Below are positions 3,597 to 64,000 of a stretch of 64,000 nt of DNA, one piece after another; position 1 is the first letter of the stretch; each line of letters begins with the position of its first letter. Below the pieces are notes generated by a model. It made no database searches. It was not told where the DNA came from and was given only the letters and a program-made list of their open reading frames with translations. Source of the stretch: Squalus acanthias (lineage: Eukaryota). The stretch lies in contig CM059432.1 of assembly GCA_030390025.1 (NCBI GenBank), forward strand, positions 1,178,001-1,242,000, given 5' to 3'. The translations under genes were made by a program, and so were the position numbers.

Positions 3597-4020
3597 AAAG
3601 AAAGACATGCATTTATATAGTGCCTTTCATGACCTCGGGATGTCCCAAAGCCCTTTACAGCCAATTAATTACTTTAGTCTTGGTTATAATGTAGGAAACG
3701 CAGCAGCCAATTTACACACAGCAAGCTCCCACAAACAGCAATGTGATAATGACCAGATCATCTGTTTAATTGATGTTGGTTGAGGGATAAATATTGGCCA
3801 GGACACCGGGTAGAACACCCCTACTCTTTTTTTCAAAATAGTCCTGTGGGTTCTTTTACATCCACCTGAGAGGGCAGACAGGGCCTCGGTTTAACGTCTC
3901 ATCCAAAAGACGGCCCCTCCGACAGTGCAGCACTCCCTCAGTACTGCCCCTCCGACAGTGCGGCGCTCCCTCAGTACTGCCCCTCCAACAGTGCAGCGCT
4001 CCCTTAGTACTGCACTGGAC
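3597..4020 (-). mobile_element. DeuSINE (SacSINE1-like) with 3 tandem 33-bp units
   Basis: Deu-domain core (rc cagtgcagtactgagggagtgctgcactgtcggagg...gttaaaccgaggccc) and L2-like tail; same family as 41550-42060. Confidence 0.8.
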
Positions 4021-8980: not shown

Positions 8981-8996
8981 TCAAGGGCGCAAGTTG

Positions 8997-9100
8997 AGTT
9001 CTGACGAAGGGTCATCGACCTGAAGCGTTAACTCTGTTTCTCTCTCCACAGATGCTGCCTGACCTGCTGAGTATTTCCAGCATTTTCTGTTTTTATTTCA
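8997..9100 (+). mobile_element. Penelope-like pseudo-LTR fragment containing a minimal hammerhead ribozyme (one core mutation)
   Basis: gagtt-CTGACGA-A-GGGTC-atc-GACCT-GAAG-CG-TT-aactc at 8996-9034; flanked by tatttcaagggc(g/a)caagttg at 8977-8996 and 9094-9113. Confidence 0.75.
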
Positions 9101-9468
9101 AGGGCACAAGTTGTTCAGAGAACTGCAAATGTATTTAATTGTTGTTGTTTTGAAAGAGATTGTTTTGGGAGATTGCATGAGGCATTATAACCTAGTGAGA
9201 TATATTTCCTGTAGTGTTACTTCCTAAACCTAATTCATAGACCATATCATCTTGGGCTTTAAACCATCAGGACGTTGTTTGTCCATCAGTTGGAGAGACC
9301 AGGAGATGTCGTGTACTCATTTCCAGTCAGCTTATCAGCAGCATAAAACGGTTCATTGTTCACCCAGGCATGCTACTTCCCAGATTGCTTCACTGATAAC
9401 GTCCAGTTTTGGCCTTGCACATGGGCTTGCCTGCAGAAAGCAGTCCTCTCACTGGCCACAAGTAGTAG

Positions 9469-29446: not shown

Positions 29447-30645
29447 GGGCCGGATTTTCCGATCGGAGGCTTCCTACGGGCAGATGCCGCCGATCGGAAA
29501 AAATCTACGCACTTACCTGCTGGCTCCGTAGGTCCCGAGACTTGCGATCCTGGGCCTCTTCACTTCGAAATGCGCAGAGGCCCAGGTATCCCAGGGGCGC
29601 ATGCAGTTCGCAAGCGTCCCTGGGATCATGTGGGCCATGGGGAACCAATCAAAGAACTGAATCCCCCTTCACACTTTTGACAGGTCTCTATGCGTAGATC
29701 TGTCAAAAGTATGAATGGGGATCTGTGGAAGTGCAGTTTTTTGTCTCGGACAAAATGGCTTCCTTGAATTTAAACTGATACAAAATAGCCGACTCTGACT
29801 TGTTTGGAAAGCAAAAAAAAAAACATTGTTATGTTTTTCATGAAAATAAATTTAAAGTTTTAGACTATGCTGTCAGCAAAGTCTGCTAGCACAAAAGAAA
29901 ACAACAGGCTTAAATTGAGATAACCAAGGGCTAGTGAAGTAAACAACCAGGGCCTTGGCCTTGGTCAGAAAAGAACAAATATAATAGACTCCATTTTATA
30001 GGGATTAGTTAGTTTCACCGTAAGGCATTTCTTATGTGTTTTTTTAACTTTTAACTTAGCTTACCTTAAACAACATGTCATGTGATATTATCAGTGAATA
30101 AGAATACTCCATTTTCTGTGATTCGGCAGTCTGTCATCATAGCTAATTGGGCTATGCTTGCAGTCTCCTTGCAAGTAAAATATAATAAAAAGCCTTCTTT
30201 GACGATATTATTGTTTAAAGAGTCTTACTCGGAAGTTGAAACTTCGACAGATCACTTAAAAAAAAAAGTTAAACATTAAATTTTTTTTAACTCACGTAGT
30301 TAAAATTACATTAAATTAAATATTTTAAACAAAAATTTAATTTTTTGAAAAAAATAAAGTTTTTTACGGGGCTAAAAATAAACGTACCTTTTTTAAAAGT
30401 ATTAAATTATAAATGAGTGGGGGGAAAAAAATATCTTTTTATTTTTTTTAAACGCTTATGCTGGTAAAAGCAGGCCTTACGCCTGCTTTTACCAGGCGTA
30501 AGATTTTTGAAGATTTTCAGAGGGCGGAAGTTTTGTAGAAAGCGGAACTCTCTGCCCGCGGATGCCCTTCTCCTGGGCAGGCGGATCATCTGTCAAGAGA
30601 ATTCTTGACCGATCGGAAGTGCTGGGTTTTAGCGTATGCACCCGT
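29447..30645. mobile_element. Harbinger-like MITE (same family as 54299-55065), right end missing, interrupted at 29723-30250
   Basis: Starts gggccggattttccgatcggaggcttc; 29447-29722 and about 30255-30645 are colinear with 54299-54990. Confidence 0.78.
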
Positions 30646-31442: not shown

Positions 31443-31925
31443 CAAAATACTGCTGATGCTGGAAACCGGGTTAACGTTTTAGGTCGATAACCTTTCATCA
31501 GTTCTGCTGAGTATTTTCTGTTTTTCTTTCCATAGCCCAGGATTGCCAAGGTTAATGATAGATGGGTCGGTAACCAGAGGTCATACATTTAAAATAATTG
31601 GCAAAAGAACTGGAGGGGGAAATGAGGAGAAATTTCTTCACACAGAGGGTTGTTAAGATCTGGAACGCACTACCTGAAAGGGTGGTGGAAGCAGATTCCA
31701 TAGGAACTTTCAAAAGGCAAATGGACATGTACTTGAAGAGAACTAATTTGCAGGGTTATGGGGTAAAGGTTGGGGTGTGGGACTAAATTGGACAGCTTTC
31801 GAAGAGGTGAATTCTATGATTCTTCCAGTTCTGGCGAAAGGTCATCGACCTGAAACGTTAACTTTGTTTCTCTCTCCACAGATGCTGCCTGACCTGCTGA
31901 GAGTTTCCAGCATTTTCTGTTTTTT
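31443..31925. mobile_element. Inverted pair of Penelope-like pseudo-LTR fragments (each with a degenerate hammerhead) around a CR1 3' fragment (about 31545-31822)
   Basis: Minus-strand CTGATGA-A-AGGTT-atc-GACCT-AAAA-CGTT at ~31470-31503; plus-strand agtt-CTGGCGA-A-AGGTC-atc-GACCT-GAAA-CG-TT-aact at 31827-31863; TSD tacttgt(a/g)tagatctg at 31427-31442 and 31926-31941. Confidence 0.72.
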
Positions 31926-33111: not shown

Positions 33112-33977
33112 GGCCCAGAAATTGATCTCGCTCTGTTCCCGCGGTGCGTACTCTCGCGTCCCGGGATCAATTTTCGGCCCATTGTTTTTTCACGGAGAAA
33201 AAGTAAAAGTACTTTTTATACAGTTTGAGACTGCAGTTCATATAGATAATGTGTTGGGAAAATCTATATGGAGGCTGACTAAATGGATCGCCTCGCTTAT
33301 GCTTTTTCAGATCCAGCTCGCACGAACTTGATGTTCCAGACATCAGCTGTGCTGGGCTTGCGTATCCCAGCGGCGTAGTGAATTCGTGCGAGCTGTGGGA
33401 TCACGTGACTCAGTTAGAGCCAATGGCAGCACACCATCTTCCATTCATAAGTCTCACAGCATGGCTGTGAAATCTATGAATCTTACACCCCCCCAAAATA
33501 ACAGCTAAACCTCAATTAAATTAAAAAAAAAAAACCATCACATTCATAAAATAAGTATAGTTAATTAAATTAACCATTTTAAATAAAAAATTAAATTTTT
33601 GAAAAAATTTAAAATCTTTTAAAAAGTTATAAAAATAAACTTACCTGTCTTTAAAGTCTATAAAAAAGATATACCTGTAAAAAAAAAATTCAAAAAAATA
33701 CTTAATTCACTACTTACCTTCTTAAAAGCGGGTCTTACTCCTCCTTTTTACATTTCCAAAATCTTCCCTACTTACCTGCGCGTCCAAAGCATGAAGTGCA
33801 CAGCGTGCGCGCAGCCTGTAGCGCGCACGCGATGCACCCAGGCCCCGCCCCCTTTTCAGAAGAGCAATTGCCGGTTTTCAGCGCATGCGCAGGGCATGCA
33901 GAAAACCGGCAATTGGAGTGGGAATACGCGAGAGTACGCAGTGCGTACTCTCGCGTCCCGGGATCAATTTTCGGCCC
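33112..33977. mobile_element. Harbinger-like MITE containing a duplicated copy of its own right end plus flank
   Basis: TIRs ggcccagaaattgatc / gatcaattttcggccc, ATT TSD; 33144-33291 identical to 33941-34088. Confidence 0.78.
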
Positions 33978-41549: not shown

Positions 41550-42060
41550 GAAAGAAAAGAAAGACTTGCATTTATGTAGTGCCTCTCTGGCACAGACAGG
41601 ATGGGCCGAATGGCGTCCTTGTGTGCCATAAATTTCTATGATTCTTTCAGGACTACCGGACATCCCAAAGCGCTTTACAGCCAATGAAGTACTTTTTTGA
41701 AGTGTAGTCACTGTTGTAATGTAGGAAACCTGGCAGCCAATTTGCGCACAGCAAACTCCCACAAACAGCAATGTGATGATGACCAGATAATCTCTTTAGT
41801 AATGTTGATTGAGGGATAAATATTGAACTCCCCTGCTGTTCTTCGAAATAGTGCCATGTGATCTTTTACTCCACCTGAGAGGGCAGACGGGGCCTCGGTT
41901 TAACGTCTCATCTGAAAGACGGCACCTCTGACAGTGCAGCACTCCCTCAGCAGTGCACGCAAGTGTCAGCCTAGATTTTTGTGCTCAAGTCTCTGGAGTG
42001 AGACCACAACCTTCTGACTCAGAGGCGAGGGTGCTACCAACTGAGCCACAGCTGGCACCA
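41550..42060 (-). mobile_element. Near full-length DeuSINE (SacSINE1-like) with small CR1-tail insertion (about 41588-41645)
   Basis: rc tRNA-like head tggctcagttggtagc, Deu core with a single 33-bp unit, tail ataaatgcaagtctttctt. Confidence 0.8.
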
Positions 42061-54298: not shown

Positions 54299-55065
54299 GG
54301 CCCTGAATTTCCGATCGGAGGCTTCATGCGGGTGGATGCCTCCTATCGGGGAAAAAAATCTACGAACTTACCTGCTGGTTCTGTAGATACCGAGGCTTGC
54401 GATCCTGGGCCTCTCCTCTTCGAAATGCGCAGAGGCCCACGTATCCCAGGGGCGCACGGCGGTTCGCAAGCGCCCCTGGGATCACATGGGCCAGGCAAAC
54501 CAATGGAAGAAGGGAATCCCCCTTCATACTTTTGACAGTTCCGTACGCTCAGAACTGTCAAAAGTATGAATGGGGATGACTGGAAAAATGCACCAACACA
54601 CTGAAATAAATAAAGAAAAACCTTACATATGTAAAATTAATTAAAATATCATTTAATTAAATATTTTAAACAAAAATTTATTTTTTTGTTTGGAACCAGT
54701 GAACGACCAGGCTAGAAAATAACTACCTTATTGCACAGGTTTTTTAATGTTTAAAATTTTTTTTTTCAACCATTTAATGTTATTTTAAACTCTTATGCTG
54801 GTAAAAGCAAGCCTTACTCCTGCTTTTACCAGGCGTAAGAATTCCACGGCCTTTCAGCGGGCGGAAGTTGTGCAAAAAGCGGAACTCTCCACCCGCAGAG
54901 GCCCTTCTCCCGGGGATGCGTGCGATCTGTCAAGAAGATTCTTGACAGATCGCAAGTGCCGGGTTTCAGCGCATGCGCTTCGCATGCCTAAACCCGGCAC
55001 TTGCGCGGCCTCGATGGGTGCGTACACACCTCTTATGCATCCGTAGGGGTCGCAAAATTCGGCCC
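54299..55065. mobile_element. Complete Harbinger-like MITE (767 bp)
   Basis: TIRs ggccctgaattt / aaaattcggccc with ATT TSD (54296-54298, 55066-55068); GC-rich arms with internal hairpins and an AT-rich centre. Confidence 0.8.
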
Positions 55066-56372
55066 ATTAGCATTTAAAAGAGACACTGGGATGGGGGTGG
55101 GGGGAGGAACCACCGAAACGTGGCAGTAAAAATGAGCTGATGAGAAGTACTGAGGGAGGGGGAAGTGAATAAAATGGAACGGGTAACCTGGTGAGTAGGA
55201 AAAGCAGCAGTAATAGAACCAATACAACCAATGAGTTGATGGTAAATATCTGTTTCTGACTAATCCTTTTAGTGTTTACTTGCATGTGATTGGAACCAGT
55301 GAAGGACAAGGCTAGAAAAGAATATGTGGAAGGGATTTTGAAAGTCACTCAATCTGAGGGGGTTAGCGTGGACACAGATAGACCTGATGACAAGGCAGTT
55401 GGAGAAGGTAAGCCTCACCTGTGCGATTGATTACCATTGGCTTAGTGATGGAATTGTCAAAAGCTCCCCTGGGGTTGGGATTTTTTTTAAATTCGTTCAT
55501 GAGATGTGGGCATCGCTCGCAAGGCCAGCATTTATTGCCCACCCCAAATTGCACTCGAAGTTGGTGGTGAGCCGGCTTCTTGAACCGCTGCAGTCTGTGT
55601 GGTGAAGATACTCTCGCAGTGCTGTTATTGTGCATTGTGTTGGGGGTCGGATGAAAATTTAGAGGTTATAAGTATTTAGATGTGTTGTCACGATGTGGAA
55701 TTATTTTTGGACACTAAGGGAATCCAAGGATAGTGCGGAAAAGTGAAGTTAAGATAGAAGATCAGCCATGATCTTATTGAATGGCGGAGCAGGCTCGAGG
55801 GTCCATATGCCCTACTCCTGCTATTTCTTATGTTTGTGTAATCAAAAATAAAGTACCTTTATGCTTGTGCGTGAACTTCGATTAATTCCAAAGCAAAACA
55901 ATGCGGATGCTGGAAATCTGAAATAAAAACAGAAAATGGTGGGAACACTCAGCCCGTCTGGAATTCCACAGATGCTGCCTGACCTGCTGAGTGCTTCCAC
56001 CATTAGAGTAATCGTTATTTAATGTCTCGATAAGAAAGATTTACATTTATACAGCGACCCTCACGACCTCCGCATGTCCCAAAGCGCTTTACAGCCAATG
56101 AAGTACTTTATGAAGTGTAGTCACTGTTTAATGTAGGAAACATGGCAGCCAATTTGGGCACAGCTAGCTCCCACAAACAGCCATATGATAATGACCAGAT
56201 CATTTTTTTTAGTGATGTTGGTTGAGGGATAAATATTGGCCAGGACACCAGGGATAACTCCCCTGCTCTTCAAAATAGTGGTCATGATGCGGAGATGCCG
56301 GTGTTGGACTGGGGTGGACAAAATTGAGAGGTCGCACAACACCAGGTTATAGTCCAACAGTTTTATTTGAAA

Positions 56373-56414
56373 TCACAAGCTTTCGGAGCTATCGATTGCT
56401 CCTTCCTCAGGTGA
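56373..56414 (-). ncRNA. Minimal type I hammerhead ribozyme motif (inverted copy)
   Basis: Exact reverse complement of 56936-56977. Confidence 0.8.
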
Positions 56415-56935
56415 AGTAAATTAGATACAGAATCGCCAAAGCATATATAGATAGAAAACAAAGCATGTGTACCTTACAATTGCAGACCACTAAATTAAAT
56501 CATCCTGACTATCTGCCGAGGTGTGATAAAGATAAAGCCAAGTTCCGCACTCATGAAGACGGTCTCAATCGGGATCTTGGGTTTATGTCACGATACATGA
56601 CGTGATCCGGACTCGAGTCGTCGTTAGCTTGTTCACAGATGTGATTCCCAGTAAAAAAGTAAAAATTTTCCCAGTAAAAAAGTAAAATTTTTAAAGCTTT
56701 TCGTTTTACATACAGACGGCAGCTTTTGACACGTTAGAACCCCTGCGACTACACCTCATTGTCTCAGTTGTATCTTGCTATGTCTTTGATGTGGTACCTT
56801 CCTGGCTGACTTAATTAACTTTATCACACCTCGGCAGATAGTCAGGATGATTTAATTTAGTGGTCTGCAATTGTAAGGTACACATGCTTTGTTTTCTATC
56901 TATATATGCTTTGGCGATTCTGTATCTAATTTACT

Positions 56936-56977
56936 TCACCTGAGGAAGGAGCAATCGATAGCTCCGAAAGCTTGTGA
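56936..56977 (+). ncRNA. Minimal type I hammerhead ribozyme motif
   Basis: tcac-CTGAGGA-A-GGAGC-aatcgata-GCTCC-GAAA-GC-TT-gtga: stem I, conserved core, 5-bp stem II, palindromic AGCT stem III; AATAAA at 56983. Confidence 0.8.
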
Positions 56978-57115
56978 TTTCAAATAAAACTGTTGGACTA
57001 TAACCTGGTGTTGTGCGACCTCTCAATTTTTTCTTCAAAATAGTGCCATGGGATCCTTTACGTCTACCGGAGAGAGCAGACGGGGCCTCGGTTTAACGCC
57101 TTGGCCGAAAGACAG

Positions 57116-57914
57116 CACCTCCAACACTGCAGCACTCTTTCAGTACTGCCCCTCCGACAGTGTAGTGCACCCTTAGTACTGTCCCTCCAACAGTGCGGCG
57201 CTCCCTCAGTACTGCTCCTCCGACAGTGCGGCGCTCCCTCAGTCCTGACCCTCCGACAGTGCGGCGCTCCCTCAGTACTGTCCCTCCGACAGTGCGGCGC
57301 TCCCTCAGTACTGCCCCTCCGACAGTGCAGCCCTCCCTCAGTACTGTCCCTCCGACAGTGCAGCGCTCCCTCAGTCCTGACCCTCCGACAGTGCGGCGCT
57401 CCCTCAGTACTGTCCCTCCGACAGTGCAGCCCTCCCTCAGTACTGTCCCTCCGACAGTGCAGCGCTCCCTCAGTCCTGACCCTCCGACAGTGCGGCGCTC
57501 CCTCAGTACCGTCCCTCCGACAGTGCGGCGCTCCCTCAGTACCGCCCCTCTGACAGTGCGGCGCTCCCTCAGTACTGCCCCCTCCGACAGTGCAGAGCTC
57601 CCTCAGTACTGCCCCTCCGACAGTGAGGCGCTCCCTCAGTACTGCCCCTCCGACAGTGAGGCACTCCCTCAGTACTGCCCCCTCCGACAGTGCGGCGCTC
57701 CCTCAGTACTGCCCCCTCCGACAGTGCGGCGCTCCCTCAGTACTGCCCCTCCGACAGTGCAGCACTCCCTCAGTACTGCCCCTCCGACAGTGCAGCTCTC
57801 CCTCAGTACTGCCCCACCGACAGTGCGGCGCTCCCTCAGTACTGCCCCTCCGACAGTGCGGCGCTCCCTCAGTACTGCCCCTCCGACAGTGAGGCGCTCC
57901 CTCAGTACTGCACT
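57116..57914. repeat. About 24 x 33-bp minisatellite (ctccgacagtgcggcgctccctcagtactgccc) derived from the DeuSINE core
   Basis: Head-to-tail units without spacers; produces the 11-aa periodic ORFs in the track. Confidence 0.93.
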
Positions 57915-58104
57915 GCGAGTGTCAGCCTAGATTTTTATGCTGAAGTCCCTCAGTGGGATAGCAGGTTCTCTCTCTTTAACAGTAGGAGTGCGGGAAAGTG
58001 TATAGGTTGGAATCCCAGTGCAATTCTTCCTGTAATACGCACACTGGGGGAAATGCGCCTTTTTAATAGAGAGCCTGGGTTCAGGGGTTCCCTCATAAAA
58101 TCAA

Positions 58105-58560
58105 CCCAGCTGGCGGCCAAGGGGAGGGGCGTGGTCTGAGTTGACGGGGGCGTGGTCTGAGTTGACTGACAGCAGGCGGCGTGCTTTGATTTGATTGGCA
58201 GGCGGTGAGGGGGCGTGGTTTGCGTTGATTGCCATGCTGGGTGGGCGCGGTGCGAGGTGATTGGCGGGCCGGCGTGCCCGCTGAGCTGGCGCTGACGCGG
58301 ACAATCGCCCTCTGTGCGGGGGGCGGGGTCGGGTCGGGGTCGCGCGGCGCCGGCCGTTTCATTTCAAAACGCGTTGCGCATCCGCGAGAGGCGACAGCGA
58401 CGGGAAGCCGGCCGGCCCAGGCGGAGAGAAGCGCGCAGTGTCAGAGTACCGAGAGAATCAGAGAGTCAGAACAAGGGAGACAGAGTCAGAGCATCAGCTG
58501 GGGGGTCACTGGAATCCACTTCTCCACACAGCCACCCACAGGTGTTTGCTGCTCTCATAG
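58105..58560 (+). promoter_or_regulatory. CpG-island promoter and probable non-coding first exon of the next gene
   Basis: Dense CpG; GGGGCGTGGT at 58126, 58147, 58210; GGGGCGGGG at 58320; ATTGG (reverse CCAAT) at 58194 and 58260; candidate donor ag|gtgaga at 58561. Strand is inferred. Confidence 0.7.
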
Positions 58561-58599: not shown

Positions 58600-61500
58600 T
58601 GTGGGGGATATGGGGGTCTATATACAGTGTGGGGATATGGGGGTCTATATACAGTGTGGGGGATATGGGGGTTTATATACAGTGTGGGGGATATGGGGAT
58701 CTATATACAGTGGGGGGATATGGGGGTCTATATACAGTGTGGGGGATATGGGGGTTTATATACAGTGGGGGATATGGGGGTCTATATACAGTGTGGGGGA
58801 TATGGGGTCTATATACAGTGTGTGGGGGGATATGGGGGTCTATATACAGTGTGTGGGGGGATATGGGGGTCTATATACAGTGTGTGGGGGGATATGGGGG
58901 CCTATATACAGTGTGGGGGATATGGGGGTCTATATACAGTGTGTGGGGGGATATGGGGGTCTATATACAGTGTGGGGGATATGGGGGTCTATATACAGTG
59001 TGGGGATATGGGGGTCTATATACAGTGTGAGGGGGATATGGGGGTCTATATACAGTGTGGGGGATATGGGGGTCTATATACAGTGTGGGGGATATGGGGG
59101 TCTATATACAGTGTGGGGGATATGGGGGTCTATATACAGTGTGGGGGATATGGGGGTCTATATACAGTGTGTGGGGATATGGGGGTCTATATACAGTGTG
59201 GGGGGATATGGGGGTCTATATACAGTGTGGGGGGATATGGGGGTCTATATACAGTGTGTGGGGGATATGGGGGTCTATATACAGTGTGGGGGATATGGGG
59301 GTCTATATACAGTGTGTGGGGGATATGGGGGTCTATATACAGTGTGGGGGATATGGGGGTCTATATACAGTGTGGGGGATATGGGGGTCTATATACAGTA
59401 TGGGGATATGGGGGTCTATATACAGTGTGGGGGATATGGGGGTCTATATACAGTGTGTGGGTGATGGGGGTCTATATACAGTGTGGGGGGATATGGGGGT
59501 CTATATACAGTGTGGGGGATATGGGGGTCTATATACAGTGTGGGGGATATGGGGGTCTATATACAGTGTGGGGGATATGGGGGTCTATATACAGTGTGGG
59601 GGATATGGGGGTCTATATACAGTCTGGGGATATGGGGTCTATATACAGTGTGGGGGATATGGGGGTCTATATACAGTGTGAGGGGGATATGGGGTCTATA
59701 TACAGTGTGGGGATATGGGGGTCTATATACAGTGTGTGGGGGTCTATATACAGTGTGGGAGATATGGGGGTCTACATACAGTGTGTGGGGGATATGGGGG
59801 TCTATATACAGTGTGGGGGATATGGGGGTCTACATACAGTGTGGGGGATATGGGGGTCTATATACAGTGCGTGGGACATGGGTCTATATACAGTGTGGGG
59901 GATATGGGGGTCTACATACAGTGTGTGGGGGATATGGGGGTCTATATACAGTGTGGGGGATATGGGGTCTATATACAGTGCGTGGGACATGGGTCTATAT
60001 ACAGTGTGGGGATATGGGGGTCTATATACAGTGTGTGGGGGTCTATATACAGTGTGGGGGATATGGGGGTCTACATACAGTGTGTGGGGGATATGGGGGT
60101 CTACATACAGTGTGTGGGGGATATGGGGGTCTATATACAGTGTGTGGGGGATATGGGGGTCTATATACAGTGTGTGGGGGATATGGGGGTCTATATACAG
60201 TGTGTGGGGGATATGGGGGTCTATATACAGTGTGTGGGGGATATGGGGGTCTATATACAGTGTGTGGGGATATGGGGGTCTATATACCGTGTGGGGGATA
60301 TGGGGGTCTATATACAGTGTGGGGGATATGGGGGTCTATATACAGTGTGTGGGGGATATGGGGGTCTATATACAGTGTGTGGGGGATATGGGGGTCTATA
60401 TACAGTGTGGGGGGATATGGGGGTCTATATACAGTGTGGGGGGGATATGGGGGTCTATATACAGTGTGTGGGGGATATGGGGGTCTATATACAGTGTATG
60501 GGGGATATGGGGGTCTATATACAGTGTGGGGGATATGGGGGTCTATATACAGTGTGGGGGATATGGGGGTCTATATACAGTATGGGGATATGGGAGTCTA
60601 TATACAGTGTGGGGATATGGGGGTCTATATACAGTGGGGATATGGGGGTCTATATACAGTGTGGGGGATATGGGTCTATACACAGTCTGGGGGATATGGG
60701 GGTCTATATACAGTGCGGGATATGGGAGTCTATATACAGTGTGGGGATATGGGGGTCTATATACAGTGTGGGGATATGGGGGTCTATATACAGTGTGGGG
60801 GATATGGGGGTCTATATGCAGTAAGGGGATATGGGGGTCTATATACAGTGTGGGGGATATGGGGGTCTATATACAGTGTGGGGGATATGGGGGTCTATAT
60901 ACAGTGTGGGGGGATATGGGGGTCTATATACAGTGTGGGGGATATGGGGGTCTATATACAGTGTGGGGGATATGGGGGTCTATATACAGTGTGGGGGATA
61001 TGGGGGTCTATATACAGTGTGGGGGGATATGGGGGTCTATATACAGTGGGGGATATGGGGGTCTATATACAGTATGGGGATATGGGGGTCTATATACAGT
61101 GTGGGGGATATGGGGGTCTATATACAGTGTGGGGGATATGGGGGTCTATATACAGTGTGTGGGTGATGGGGGTCTATATACAGTGTGGGGGGATATGGGG
61201 GTCTATATACAGTGTGGGGGATATGGGGGTCTATATACAGTGTGGGGGATATGGGGGTCTATATACAGTGTGGGGGATATGGGGGTCTATATACAGTGTG
61301 GGGGATATGGGGGTCTACATACAGTGTGTGGGGGATATGGGGGTCTATATACAGTGTGGGGGATATGGGGGTCTACATACAGTGTGGGGGATATGGGGGT
61401 CTATATACAGTGCGTGGGACATGGGTCTATATACAGTGTGGGGGATATGGGGGTCTACATACAGTGTGTGGGGGATATGGGGGTCTATATACAGTGTGGG

Positions 61501-64000
61501 GGATATGGGGGTCTATATACAGTGTGTGGGGGATATGGGGGTCTATATACAGTGTGTGGGGGTTATGGGGGTCTATATACAGTGCGTGGGACATGGGTCT
61601 ATATACAGTGTGGGGATATGGGGGTCTACATACAGTGTGTGGGGGATATGGGGGTCTATATACAGTGTGGGGGGGATATGGGGGTCTATATACAGTGTGT
61701 GGGGGATATGGGGGTCTATATACAGTGTGTGGGGGATATGGGGGTCTATATACAGTGTGTGGGGATATGGGGGTCTATATACCGTGTGGGGGATATGGGG
61801 GTCTATATACAGTGTGGGGGATATGGGGTCTATATACAGTGTGTGGGGGATATGGGGGTCTATATACAGTGTGGGGGGGATATGGGGGTCTATATACAGT
61901 GTGGGGGATATGGGGGTCTATATACAGTGTGGGGGATATGGGGGTCTATATACAGTATGGGGATATGGGGGTCTATATACAGTGTGGGGGATATGGGTCT
62001 ATATACAGCCTGGGGGATATGGGGGTCTATATACAGTGCGTGGGACATGGGTCTATATACAGTCTGGGGGATATGGGGGTCCATATACAGTGCGGGATAT
62101 GGGAGTCTATATACAGTGTGGGGATATGGGGGTCTATATACAGTGTGGGGATATGGGGGTCTATATACAGTGTGAGGGATATGGGGGTCTATATACAGTA
62201 TGGGGATATGGGGGTCTATATACAGTGTGGGGGATATGGGGGTCTATATACAGTGTGGGGGATATGGGGGTCTATATACAGTGTGGGGGATATGGGGGTC
62301 TATATACAGTGTGGGGGATATGGGGGTCTATATACAGTGGGGGGATATGGGGGTCTATATACAGTGTGGGGGATATGGGGGTCTATATACAGTATGGGGA
62401 TATGGGGGTCTATATACAGTGTGCGGGATATGGGGGTCTATATACAGTGTGGGGGATATGGGGGTCTATATACAGTGTGTGGGGGATATGGGGGTCTATA
62501 TACAGTGTGGGGGGATATGGGGGTCTATATACAGTGTGGGGGATATGGGGGTCTATATACAGTGTGGGGGATATGGGGGTCTATATACAGTCTGGGGATA
62601 TGGGGGTCTATATACAGTGCGTGGGACATGGGTCTATATACAGTGTGGGGGATATGGGGGTCTATATACAGTGTGGGGGATATGGGGGTCTATATACAGT
62701 GTGGGGGATATGGGGGTCTATATACAGTGTGGGGGATATGGGGGTCTATATACAGTGTGAGGGGGATATGGGGGTCTATATACAGTGTGAGGGCGATATG
62801 CGGGTCTATATACAGTGTGGGGGATATGCGGGTCTATATACAGTGTGGGGGATATGGGGGTCTATATACAGTGTGGGGATATGGGGGGCTATATGCAGTG
62901 TGGGGATATGGGAGTATATACAGTGTGTGGGGGATATGCGGGTCTATATACAGTGTGGGGGATATGGGGGTCTATATGCAGTGTGGGGATATGGGAGTAT
63001 ATACAGTGTGTGGGGGATATGCGGGTCTATATACAGTGTGGGGATATGGGGGTCTATATACAGTGTGGGGGATATGGGGGTCTATATACAGTGTGGGGGA
63101 TATGGGGGTCTATATACAGTGTGGGGATATGCGGGTCTATATACAGTGTGGGGATATGGGGGTCTATATACAGTGTGGGGGATATGGGGGTCTATATACA
63201 GTGTGGGGGATATGCGGGTCTATATACAGTGTGGGGATATGGGGGGCTATATGCAGTGTGGGGATATGCGAGTATATACAGTGTGTGGGGGATATGCGGG
63301 TCTATATACAGTGTGGGGGATATGGGGGTCTATATACAGTGTGTGGGGATATGGGGGTCTATATACAGTGTGTGGGGGATATGGGGGTCTATATACAGTG
63401 TGTGGGGGATATGGGGGTCTATATACAGTGTGTGGGGATATGGGAGTCTATATACAGTGTGGGGGATATGGGGGTCTATATACAGTGTGAGGGGGATCTG
63501 GGGGTCTATATACAGTGTGAGGGGGATATGCGGGTCTATATACAGTGTGGGGGATATGGGGTTCTATATACAGTGTGGGGGATATGGGGGTCTATATACA
63601 GTGTGGGGATATGGGGGTCTATATACAGTGTGGGGGTTAGGGGGTCTATATACAGTGTGGGGGATATGGGGGTCTATATACAGTGTGGGGGATATGGGGG
63701 TCTATATACAGTGTGGGGATATGGGGGTCTATATACAGTGTGGGGGATATGGGGGTCTATATACAGTGTGGGGATATGGGGGTCTATATACAGTGTGGGG
63801 ATATGGGGGTCTATATACAGTGTGGGGGATATGGGGGTCTATATACAGTGTGGGGATATGGGGGTCTATATACAGTGTGGGGATATGGGGGTCTATATAC
63901 AGTGTGGGGGATATGGGGGTCTATATACAGTGTGGGGGATATGGGGGTCTATATACAGTGTGGGGATATGGGGGTCTATATACAGTGTGAGGGGGATATG
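58600..64000. repeat. G-rich minisatellite, consensus 28-bp gtgtgggggatatgggggtctatataca, more than 5.4 kb, runs off the window end
   Basis: Continuous tandem array with unit-length variants from G-run and GT slippage. Confidence 0.98.

Follow-up and report, generated by a model that had tools for sequence, protein, structure and literature searches.

Penelope-like elements (PLEs) typically insert as a truncated body with an adjacent inverted pseudo-LTR (pLTR), a 30-40-bp tail on one side and a target-site duplication (PMC8557442; PMC3846280; PMC8969392), the one-sided tail being defined in PMC8557442 and PMC11167929. EN+ PLEs are characterized in PMC8557442 by a CCHH motif with two cysteines between GIY and YIG, and by conserved R, H, E and N residues; in the same account, elements with a CX2-5CXXC linker joining RT to EN belong to Neptune or Nematis and not to Penelope/Poseidon. 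In the vertebrates covered by a preprint, no clades other than Neptune and Poseidon are reported (10.64898/2026.07.22.740005). For an anole element, the protein has been described to cut and extend both target strands, with two internal reverse-transcription start sites bounding the tail, and in the literature found this Poseidon enzyme is the only full-length PLE enzyme reported active in vitro (PMC11167929). Rotifer PLEs include a copy flanked by inverted 212-bp pLTRs, and self-priming, on an antisense template or from palindromes, is the explanation favored there for inverted junctions (PMC3846280). Moreover, minimal hammerheads are known from metazoan PLEs, including opposite-strand pairs lying 100-700 bp apart (PMC4209133).

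Here, we examine an insertion in a 64-kb stretch of Squalus acanthias DNA, called the window below, whose closest proteins are those of sharks. The insert is very probably a 5'-truncated, non-coding copy of a high-copy shark PLE, likely of Neptune type, arranged head-to-head with an inverted copy of its own end. The copy itself is unable to code for its own movement. Its layout is already published for PLEs (PMC3846280, PMC8557442), and every EN+ PLE feature tested was found, either in the insert or in its relatives. The literature search returned no account of this shark family, which may be catalogued in Repbase or Dfam.

Anatomy and surroundings of the insertion

The insert totals 751 bp, consisting of the last 495 bases of the element, the last 212 bases again in inverted orientation, and the 39-base tail (Table 1). 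Truncation at the 5' end, an inverted pLTR and a tail of 30-40 bp at one end, together a feature of EN+ PLEs, are thus all present. The first-pass annotation had described a perfect 212-bp inverted repeat, a 287-bp spacer and a 39-bp extension on the left arm only; recomputation gave no mismatch between the arms, whose exact match cannot be lengthened further, and returned both the spacer and the extension exactly. Four small corrections apply to this anatomy: a single additional T (57031) sits between the right arm and the right copy of the duplication, the head-to-head junction carries a 6-nt tandem repeat, parent sequence begins at 56536, with 56532-56535 part of neither the exact arm nor the parent ORF, and each arm holds a previously unlisted hammerhead motif. 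A 23-bp tandem duplication lies in the 3' untranslated part at 56645-56692; directly next to the inner edge of the right arm stands the palindrome TTAATTAA (56811-56818). No other inverted pair of at least 150 nt exceeded 89% identity in window positions 1-58500.

Table 1. Coordinates of the insertion, its parts and its immediate surroundings in the window
Feature	Position	Strand	Evidence or remark
Host SINE interrupted by the insertion	56030..57930 (ends approximate)		High-copy SINE-like repeat
Target-site duplication, left copy, 14 bp	56267..56280	+	Empty site matches two SINE copies
One-sided 39-nt tail	56281..56319	-	Reads ATGAC at its sense-strand end, where the next ORF likely starts; 5 listed family joints have their end point at 56278-56285
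Inverted pseudo-LTR, left arm, 212 nt	56320..56531	-	Exact reverse complement of 56819-57030
Predicted minimal type I hammerhead motif, left arm	56373..56414	-	Mirror of 56936-56977
Head-to-head junction	56526..56537	+	ATAAAG twice; loose ends of family contigs start at 56536
Final 22 codons plus stop, RT + GIY-YIG ORF	56536..56605	+	5' truncation point 56536
Element 3' untranslated part	56606..56818	+	High summed depth in family contigs, runs X1, X5, X6
Direct pseudo-LTR, right arm	56819..57030	+	Natural 3' end of the body, without tail; then T at 57031
Predicted minimal type I hammerhead motif, right arm	56936..56977	+	Predicted cut after 56973
Target-site duplication, right copy, 14 bp	57032..57045	+	Repeat of the left 14-mer
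CpG-rich stretch with GC-box-like repeats	58100..58450		CpG o/e 1.13, GC 0.69; likely a promoter, outside the element

The 14-mer TCTTCAAAATAGTG flanks the insert on both sides as an exact, maximal repeat. When the empty site was rebuilt in silico, two further SINE copies of the window could be aligned with it through the junction (3687-3998, 84% identity; 41686-41956, 81%), so the duplication, first annotated as a 14-bp one inside a SINE, is real, and the target duplication characteristic of EN+ PLEs is seen here as 14 bp at a single locus. The host SINE may be of SacSINE1/Deu type, a label that would fit shark SINEs. DeuSINEs are marked by a conserved Deu domain, a tRNA-like head and an L2-like tail; ARAGORN called no tRNA in the host repeat. 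The host SINE also holds an array of 24 copies of a 33-bp unit (57118-57911), located on the side of the insertion that faces the CpG island. The CpG-rich stretch begins about 1.06 kb downstream of the insert, in line with the approximate 1.1 kb given before. On the other side, a TTC39-family gene has its stop about 5.6 kb before the insert. Two of its upstream exons match PF10300; its putative last exon was located by a motif and gave no Pfam match.

Other repeats were also observed in the window. Directly after the CpG-rich stretch, at 58600-64000, some 192 copies of a 28-bp unit form a strongly G-skewed satellite, which runs off the window and yields long spurious ORFs. Short palindromic elements at 54516-54577, 54921-55005, 29661-29722 and 33865-33956, of which those at 54516 and 29661 share similar flanks, may be true MITE-like repeats. 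Additionally, a second, older family of PLE ends occurs at 8989-9105, 31830-31925 and 55901-56003; two of these older copies bear a variant hammerhead-like core, the first is flanked by a 12-bp direct repeat (8977, 9094), and the last, 260 bp left of the insert, is a short head-to-head remnant with a one-sided tail.

Each arm of the insert carries a minimal type I hammerhead motif, absent from the first-pass annotation, by which the hammerhead typical of the pLTR of EN+ PLEs is present as a motif. It comprises a 4-bp helix I (TCAC/GTGA), the core CTGAGGA, an extra A, a 5-bp helix II with a G-C first pair, GAAA and the palindromic AAGCTT. A descriptor of this motif matched twice in the window, once per arm, and gave no match in 40 dinucleotide shuffles of 58.5 kb or in 2000 shuffles of the body, a lenient control given that the descriptor was composed after the motif had been seen. 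The hammerhead region folds no better than its shuffles (z -1.5), and Rfam models at gathering score had no match in the window. In a dimer fold prediction, the two helices II paired with each other, which is not the active dimer; furthermore, a single transcript would not yield the dimer, given that the motifs occupy opposite strands.

Parent protein, family copies and class of the element

Within the spacer, 56537-56605 encodes the peptide AKFRTHEDGLNRDLGFMSRYMT followed by a stop. With the 61-residue frame spanning the junction as query, six of nine candidate proteins matched, all with the same terminal peptide. One of the six, an RT protein of 643 aa from Heptranchias, heads a cluster of 54 members; the 39 arm-derived residues preceding the peptide had no significant protein match. 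The spacer peptide is identical at 20 of 20 residues to the C-terminus of cluster member P0014 (697 aa; Pfam RVT_1, 3.7e-10), whose match begins exactly at 56537, and at 20 of 21 to P0006, and it differs at 2 of 21 residues from the end of P0004, which matches Pfam GIY-YIG (2.3e-5, above cut-off). The protein alignment contains an RT and a CX4CXXC linker; between its GIY-like and YIG motifs stand two cysteines, and G-L-N is terminal, with C548, C552, R568, H572 and N633 present in at least 90% of the rows covering them (alignment A1). The CCHH-type GIY-YIG domain of EN+ PLEs is thus found in the alignment, and the order of RT followed by C-terminal GIY-YIG in a single parent ORF is found on protein relatives and in-frame family contigs, the link to RT resting on proteins of Heptranchias and other sharks plus short DNA loose ends. 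The annotated GLN-type end of the GIY-YIG domain agrees with the terminal G-L-N of the alignment, although a motif named 'GLN' is absent from the main text of PMC8557442.

The linker occurs in all 15 members listed of the 54-member cluster of P0006, pointing to Neptune or Nematis and excluding Penelope/Poseidon; judged from these protein sequences, the parent family is likely of Neptune type. Most Heptranchias proteins end in RYT or RYTLPHQ, not RYMT, suggesting that the subfamily of the insert differs from most of them. Searches elsewhere added little: none of 22 candidates for the ORF start proved to be an N-terminal relative, a search of representative proteins gave no closer full-length shark protein, and no solved structure matched P0028. 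At the DNA level, arm and tail patterns had no match in viral, metagenome or bacterial-genome contigs, and a related-locus search of microbial and viral collections produced just three uninformative loci (29-31% identity) from a plant metagenome. Full-length copies in partial tandem, an arrangement characteristic of EN+ PLEs, did not turn up in these microbial and viral collections. Pieces of the PLE ORF were also observed within NCBI gene models, namely Heptranchias FAM204A, XRCC5, DIPK2Ab and EPN2 isoforms and a Mustelus pyrin-domain protein (the proteins behind these models being P0002, P0005, P0014, P0044 and P0003); they represent either exonisation or annotation artefacts.

Family copies were followed in contigs from four of 24 listed sequencing runs, compared with 55650-56818, a segment that includes one arm only and has the right junction outside it. 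The listings cover 32 pieces out of roughly 257,000 and 15 joints out of 524, with differences partly uncounted in runs X1 and X13. The contigs showed neither an intact source copy nor an empty allele. Loose ends before 56536 occur in 7 contigs of X1, 25 of X5 and one of X6 (three runs of organism A, X6 perhaps being an RNA run), and, read by eye, continue in frame as KIIEQKLI, matching RKIVEQKLIAKF / RKIVEQKLI of P0006. Longer copies therefore run into the endonuclease, and the copy at this locus has lost everything before 56536. Across the element, summed depth reaches 0.4-5 million, against about 4-20 at unique places (X1), which is not a copy number and shows that the PLE family is very abundant. 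In organism C (X13), the ORF end and tail region are covered, depth is 0-10 over most of the 3' untranslated part and inner arm, and family sequence at 90% identity or above is nearly absent there; organism C carries related families, not the family of the insert. As a further observation, four runs of organism B (X7, X8, X17, X19) contain a fraction of 0.21-0.31 of the words of 54600-57050, perhaps from the same family.

These results bear out the original reading of the insert as a 5'-truncated Penelope-like copy with an inverted pLTR, a one-sided tail, a target-site duplication and a GIY-YIG end, which now draws on RT and GIY-YIG protein matches as well as on family contigs. They also uphold the remark that the insert looks like a TIR transposon and is a retroelement. 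A non-autonomous DNA transposon (a MITE or foldback element) with 212-bp TIRs and a captured retroelement piece would share the perfect long inverted repeats at the ends and the target duplication, but is highly improbable: the 39-nt tail makes the left arm non-terminal, in family contigs the spacer runs on naturally into the arm at its 3' side, and a PLE-type hammerhead motif lies inside it. Moreover, family copies have varied end points and continue upstream in the GIY-YIG frame, which identifies a 5'-truncated PLE rather than a TIR transposon. Neither of the two findings that the annotation had named as incompatible with its reading, arms that are fixed TIRs and the lack of an RT/GIY-YIG ORF upstream, was made. 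A non-LTR retrozyme, described as non-coding head-to-tail tandem units with a hammerhead in each (10.64898/2026.07.22.740005), was rejected since the pair is head-to-head and retains an ORF remnant. A fold-back artefact of long-read sequencing or assembly is the least credible reading, for while it would explain arms with zero mismatches, and none of the listed contigs from the four runs spans the stretch, flanking DNA would then be mirrored as well, and neither the 14-bp direct duplication nor the tail on one side nor the SINE continuing on both sides would result.

Formation of the inverted copy and age of the insertion

How the two arms came to lie head to head can be approached through the ends of family copies. 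Among the 27 joint rows listed of 715, five distinct entry points into the element fall at 56278-56285 and two at 56324-56326, with different flanks; family ends thus cluster at two places about 40 nt apart. The two clusters match the paired reverse-transcription start sites that bound the tail of the anole element (PMC11167929). We lean towards double priming, whereby both nicked strands prime separate cDNAs that are joined head to head. Inside the older SINE, the GIY-YIG endonuclease would nick both strands of the target at points some 14 bases from each other, and each target 3' end would prime reverse transcription on family RNA. The bottom strand would prime from the inner start site, copying 495 nt without a tail, and the top strand from the outer site, copying 251 nt with the tail included. 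The two incomplete cDNAs would be joined via a microhomology of a few bases and a 4-base locally templated insert, where TGATA of the arm resembles TGATA of the parent, leaving ATAAAG twice; gap filling would then produce the 14-bp target duplication. Against double priming, the evidence for use of both strands comes from a Poseidon-clade enzyme in vitro, and the ATT cut preferred by the anole enzyme is at neither edge of the 14-bp duplication (PMC11167929).

A less probable but serious explanation is that one cDNA folded back and primed itself, on an antisense template or through the TTAATTAA palindrome, with no second target-primed cDNA. Such self-priming is argued for inverted junctions in PMC3846280, the palindrome sits directly at the inner edge of the arm, and a joint of 56534 to 56789 (X5, X6) suggests another copy with an arm stopping nearly alike. 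However, the arms end at different outer sites, one with the tail and one without, which two separate priming events explain simply. Furthermore, the junction is not itself palindromic and is separated from the second arm by 283 nt of body. Strand-change joints in family contigs run from 56810-56817 into the arm.

Other joints concern the target rather than the junction. Two family joints reach 2-3 bases into the duplicated target, weakly hinting at microhomology at the tail end and an ATG-ACC start there. Loose ends of SINE type at 56271 derive from other SINE copies, the SINE-tail junction is crossed by two X1 pieces with seven differing letters each, and a joint of 56278 to 56324 is present in X1 and X5. 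In X1 and X5, contigs of other loci connect this SINE position (56250-56325) with the family's tail or arm, a weak hint of a preferred insertion site that is not distinguishable from chance; the remaining joints listed enter the element from five other repeat positions.

The first-pass annotation called the insertion very young on account of its identical arms and duplication. Relative to the other repeats of the window this holds: CpG o/e is 0.92 in the insert and 0.43 in the window, where 11 of 110 500-bp windows reach 0.69, and 25 CpGs are kept in 751 bp. No position listed in 56281-56818 differs from more than 80% of family depth, as against four host-repeat positions differing in 85-97% of depth; at 56456, the copy has the minority base of the family, in both arms. 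As an absolute statement, by contrast, 'very young' does not follow from identical arms, which are compatible with millions of generations at the shark rate. With 7e-10 mutations per base per generation, a rate with a wide interval from another shark species (PMC10587355), a copy 1 million generations old would be expected to have identical arms in 74% of cases, and one 3 million generations old in 41%. The arms give a 95% age bound of 10 million generations; taking all sites lowers it to 5.5 million, and to 3.5-4.4 million if CpGs mutate 5-10 times faster. Given so slow a rate, identical arms place no tighter limit on the age than about 10 million generations. Compared with other repeats of the window, the copy is likely recent, at under about 5 million generations.

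Within this range, an insertion that is already fixed has the edge in our judgement. It would be up to a few million generations old, its arms kept alike by slow mutation with or without gene conversion, and the family would perhaps no longer be moving. Such a history accords with the expected persistence of identical arms and with several family positions that are split 57-80% between alleles, suggesting that subfamilies had time to diverge. However, the 25 retained CpGs, the perfect duplication and the lack of a listed private change count against it, conversion between the arms would not explain the unchanged spacer, and the family is nearly absent from organism C in the region noted above. 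The suggestion that the insertion is polymorphic is accordingly kept as a tentative one, somewhat short of even chances. That the family is jumping now, with polymorphic Neptune-type insertions, an intact ribozyme motif and head-to-head copies that record double priming from two start sites, seems unlikely.

Significance and comparison with known systems

As a single locus, the insertion matters little, being a clean example of a published layout. The family is of broader use as a probe: its copies are abundant and nearly identical, and at least one other species lacks this form of it, so that it could serve as a source of shark population markers. Its junctions could decide how Penelope inverted repeats arise, and it is perhaps a source of an active Neptune-type enzyme. 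If the family were indeed active now, the unsettled origin of these repeats would be testable within one genome and a live Neptune enzyme would be available. More generally, perfect repeats are a poor guide to age in sharks, and such PLE copies can be mistaken for TIR transposons or end up inside gene models.

Among described systems, the closest is the canonical EN+ PLE unit (PMC8557442 Fig. 2; Adineta Pen2/Pen2a, PMC3846280), which shares the truncation, adjacent inverted pLTR, one-ended tail, target duplication of variable length and C-terminal GIY-YIG. The shark insert differs from it in host, in retaining only 22 codons of the ORF and in lacking an upstream direct pLTR; in addition, target duplications are 8-10 bp in the rotifer examples, compared with 14 bp here (PMC3846280). 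The hammerheads resemble those described in PMC4209133 in their 4-bp helix I, the extra base between positions 9 and 10.1, the G10.1-C11.1 pair, and palindromic bases after GAAA with no stable helix III. Helix II is 5 bp here, whereas it is 7-8 bp in the Schistosoma families, and no shark example was found in the available text of PMC4209133. SacSINE1/DeuSINE is described as an abundant shark SINE (PMC5499810). The host repeat may resemble it in make-up, and is set apart by its 24-unit array of a 33-bp unit.

At the level of clades, the insert's protein relatives share their linker with Neptune, although the insert itself no longer has it, and Nematis carries the linker as well. The Anolis Poseidon element PAc combines a hammerhead in the pLTR with an ORF start near the tail (PMC11167929), both of which are predicted for the insert. 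It belongs to a different clade, however, and its reverse transcription starts about 111 bp or more into the ORF (PMC11167929), whereas the tail of the shark insert seems to end just 5-8 nt into it.
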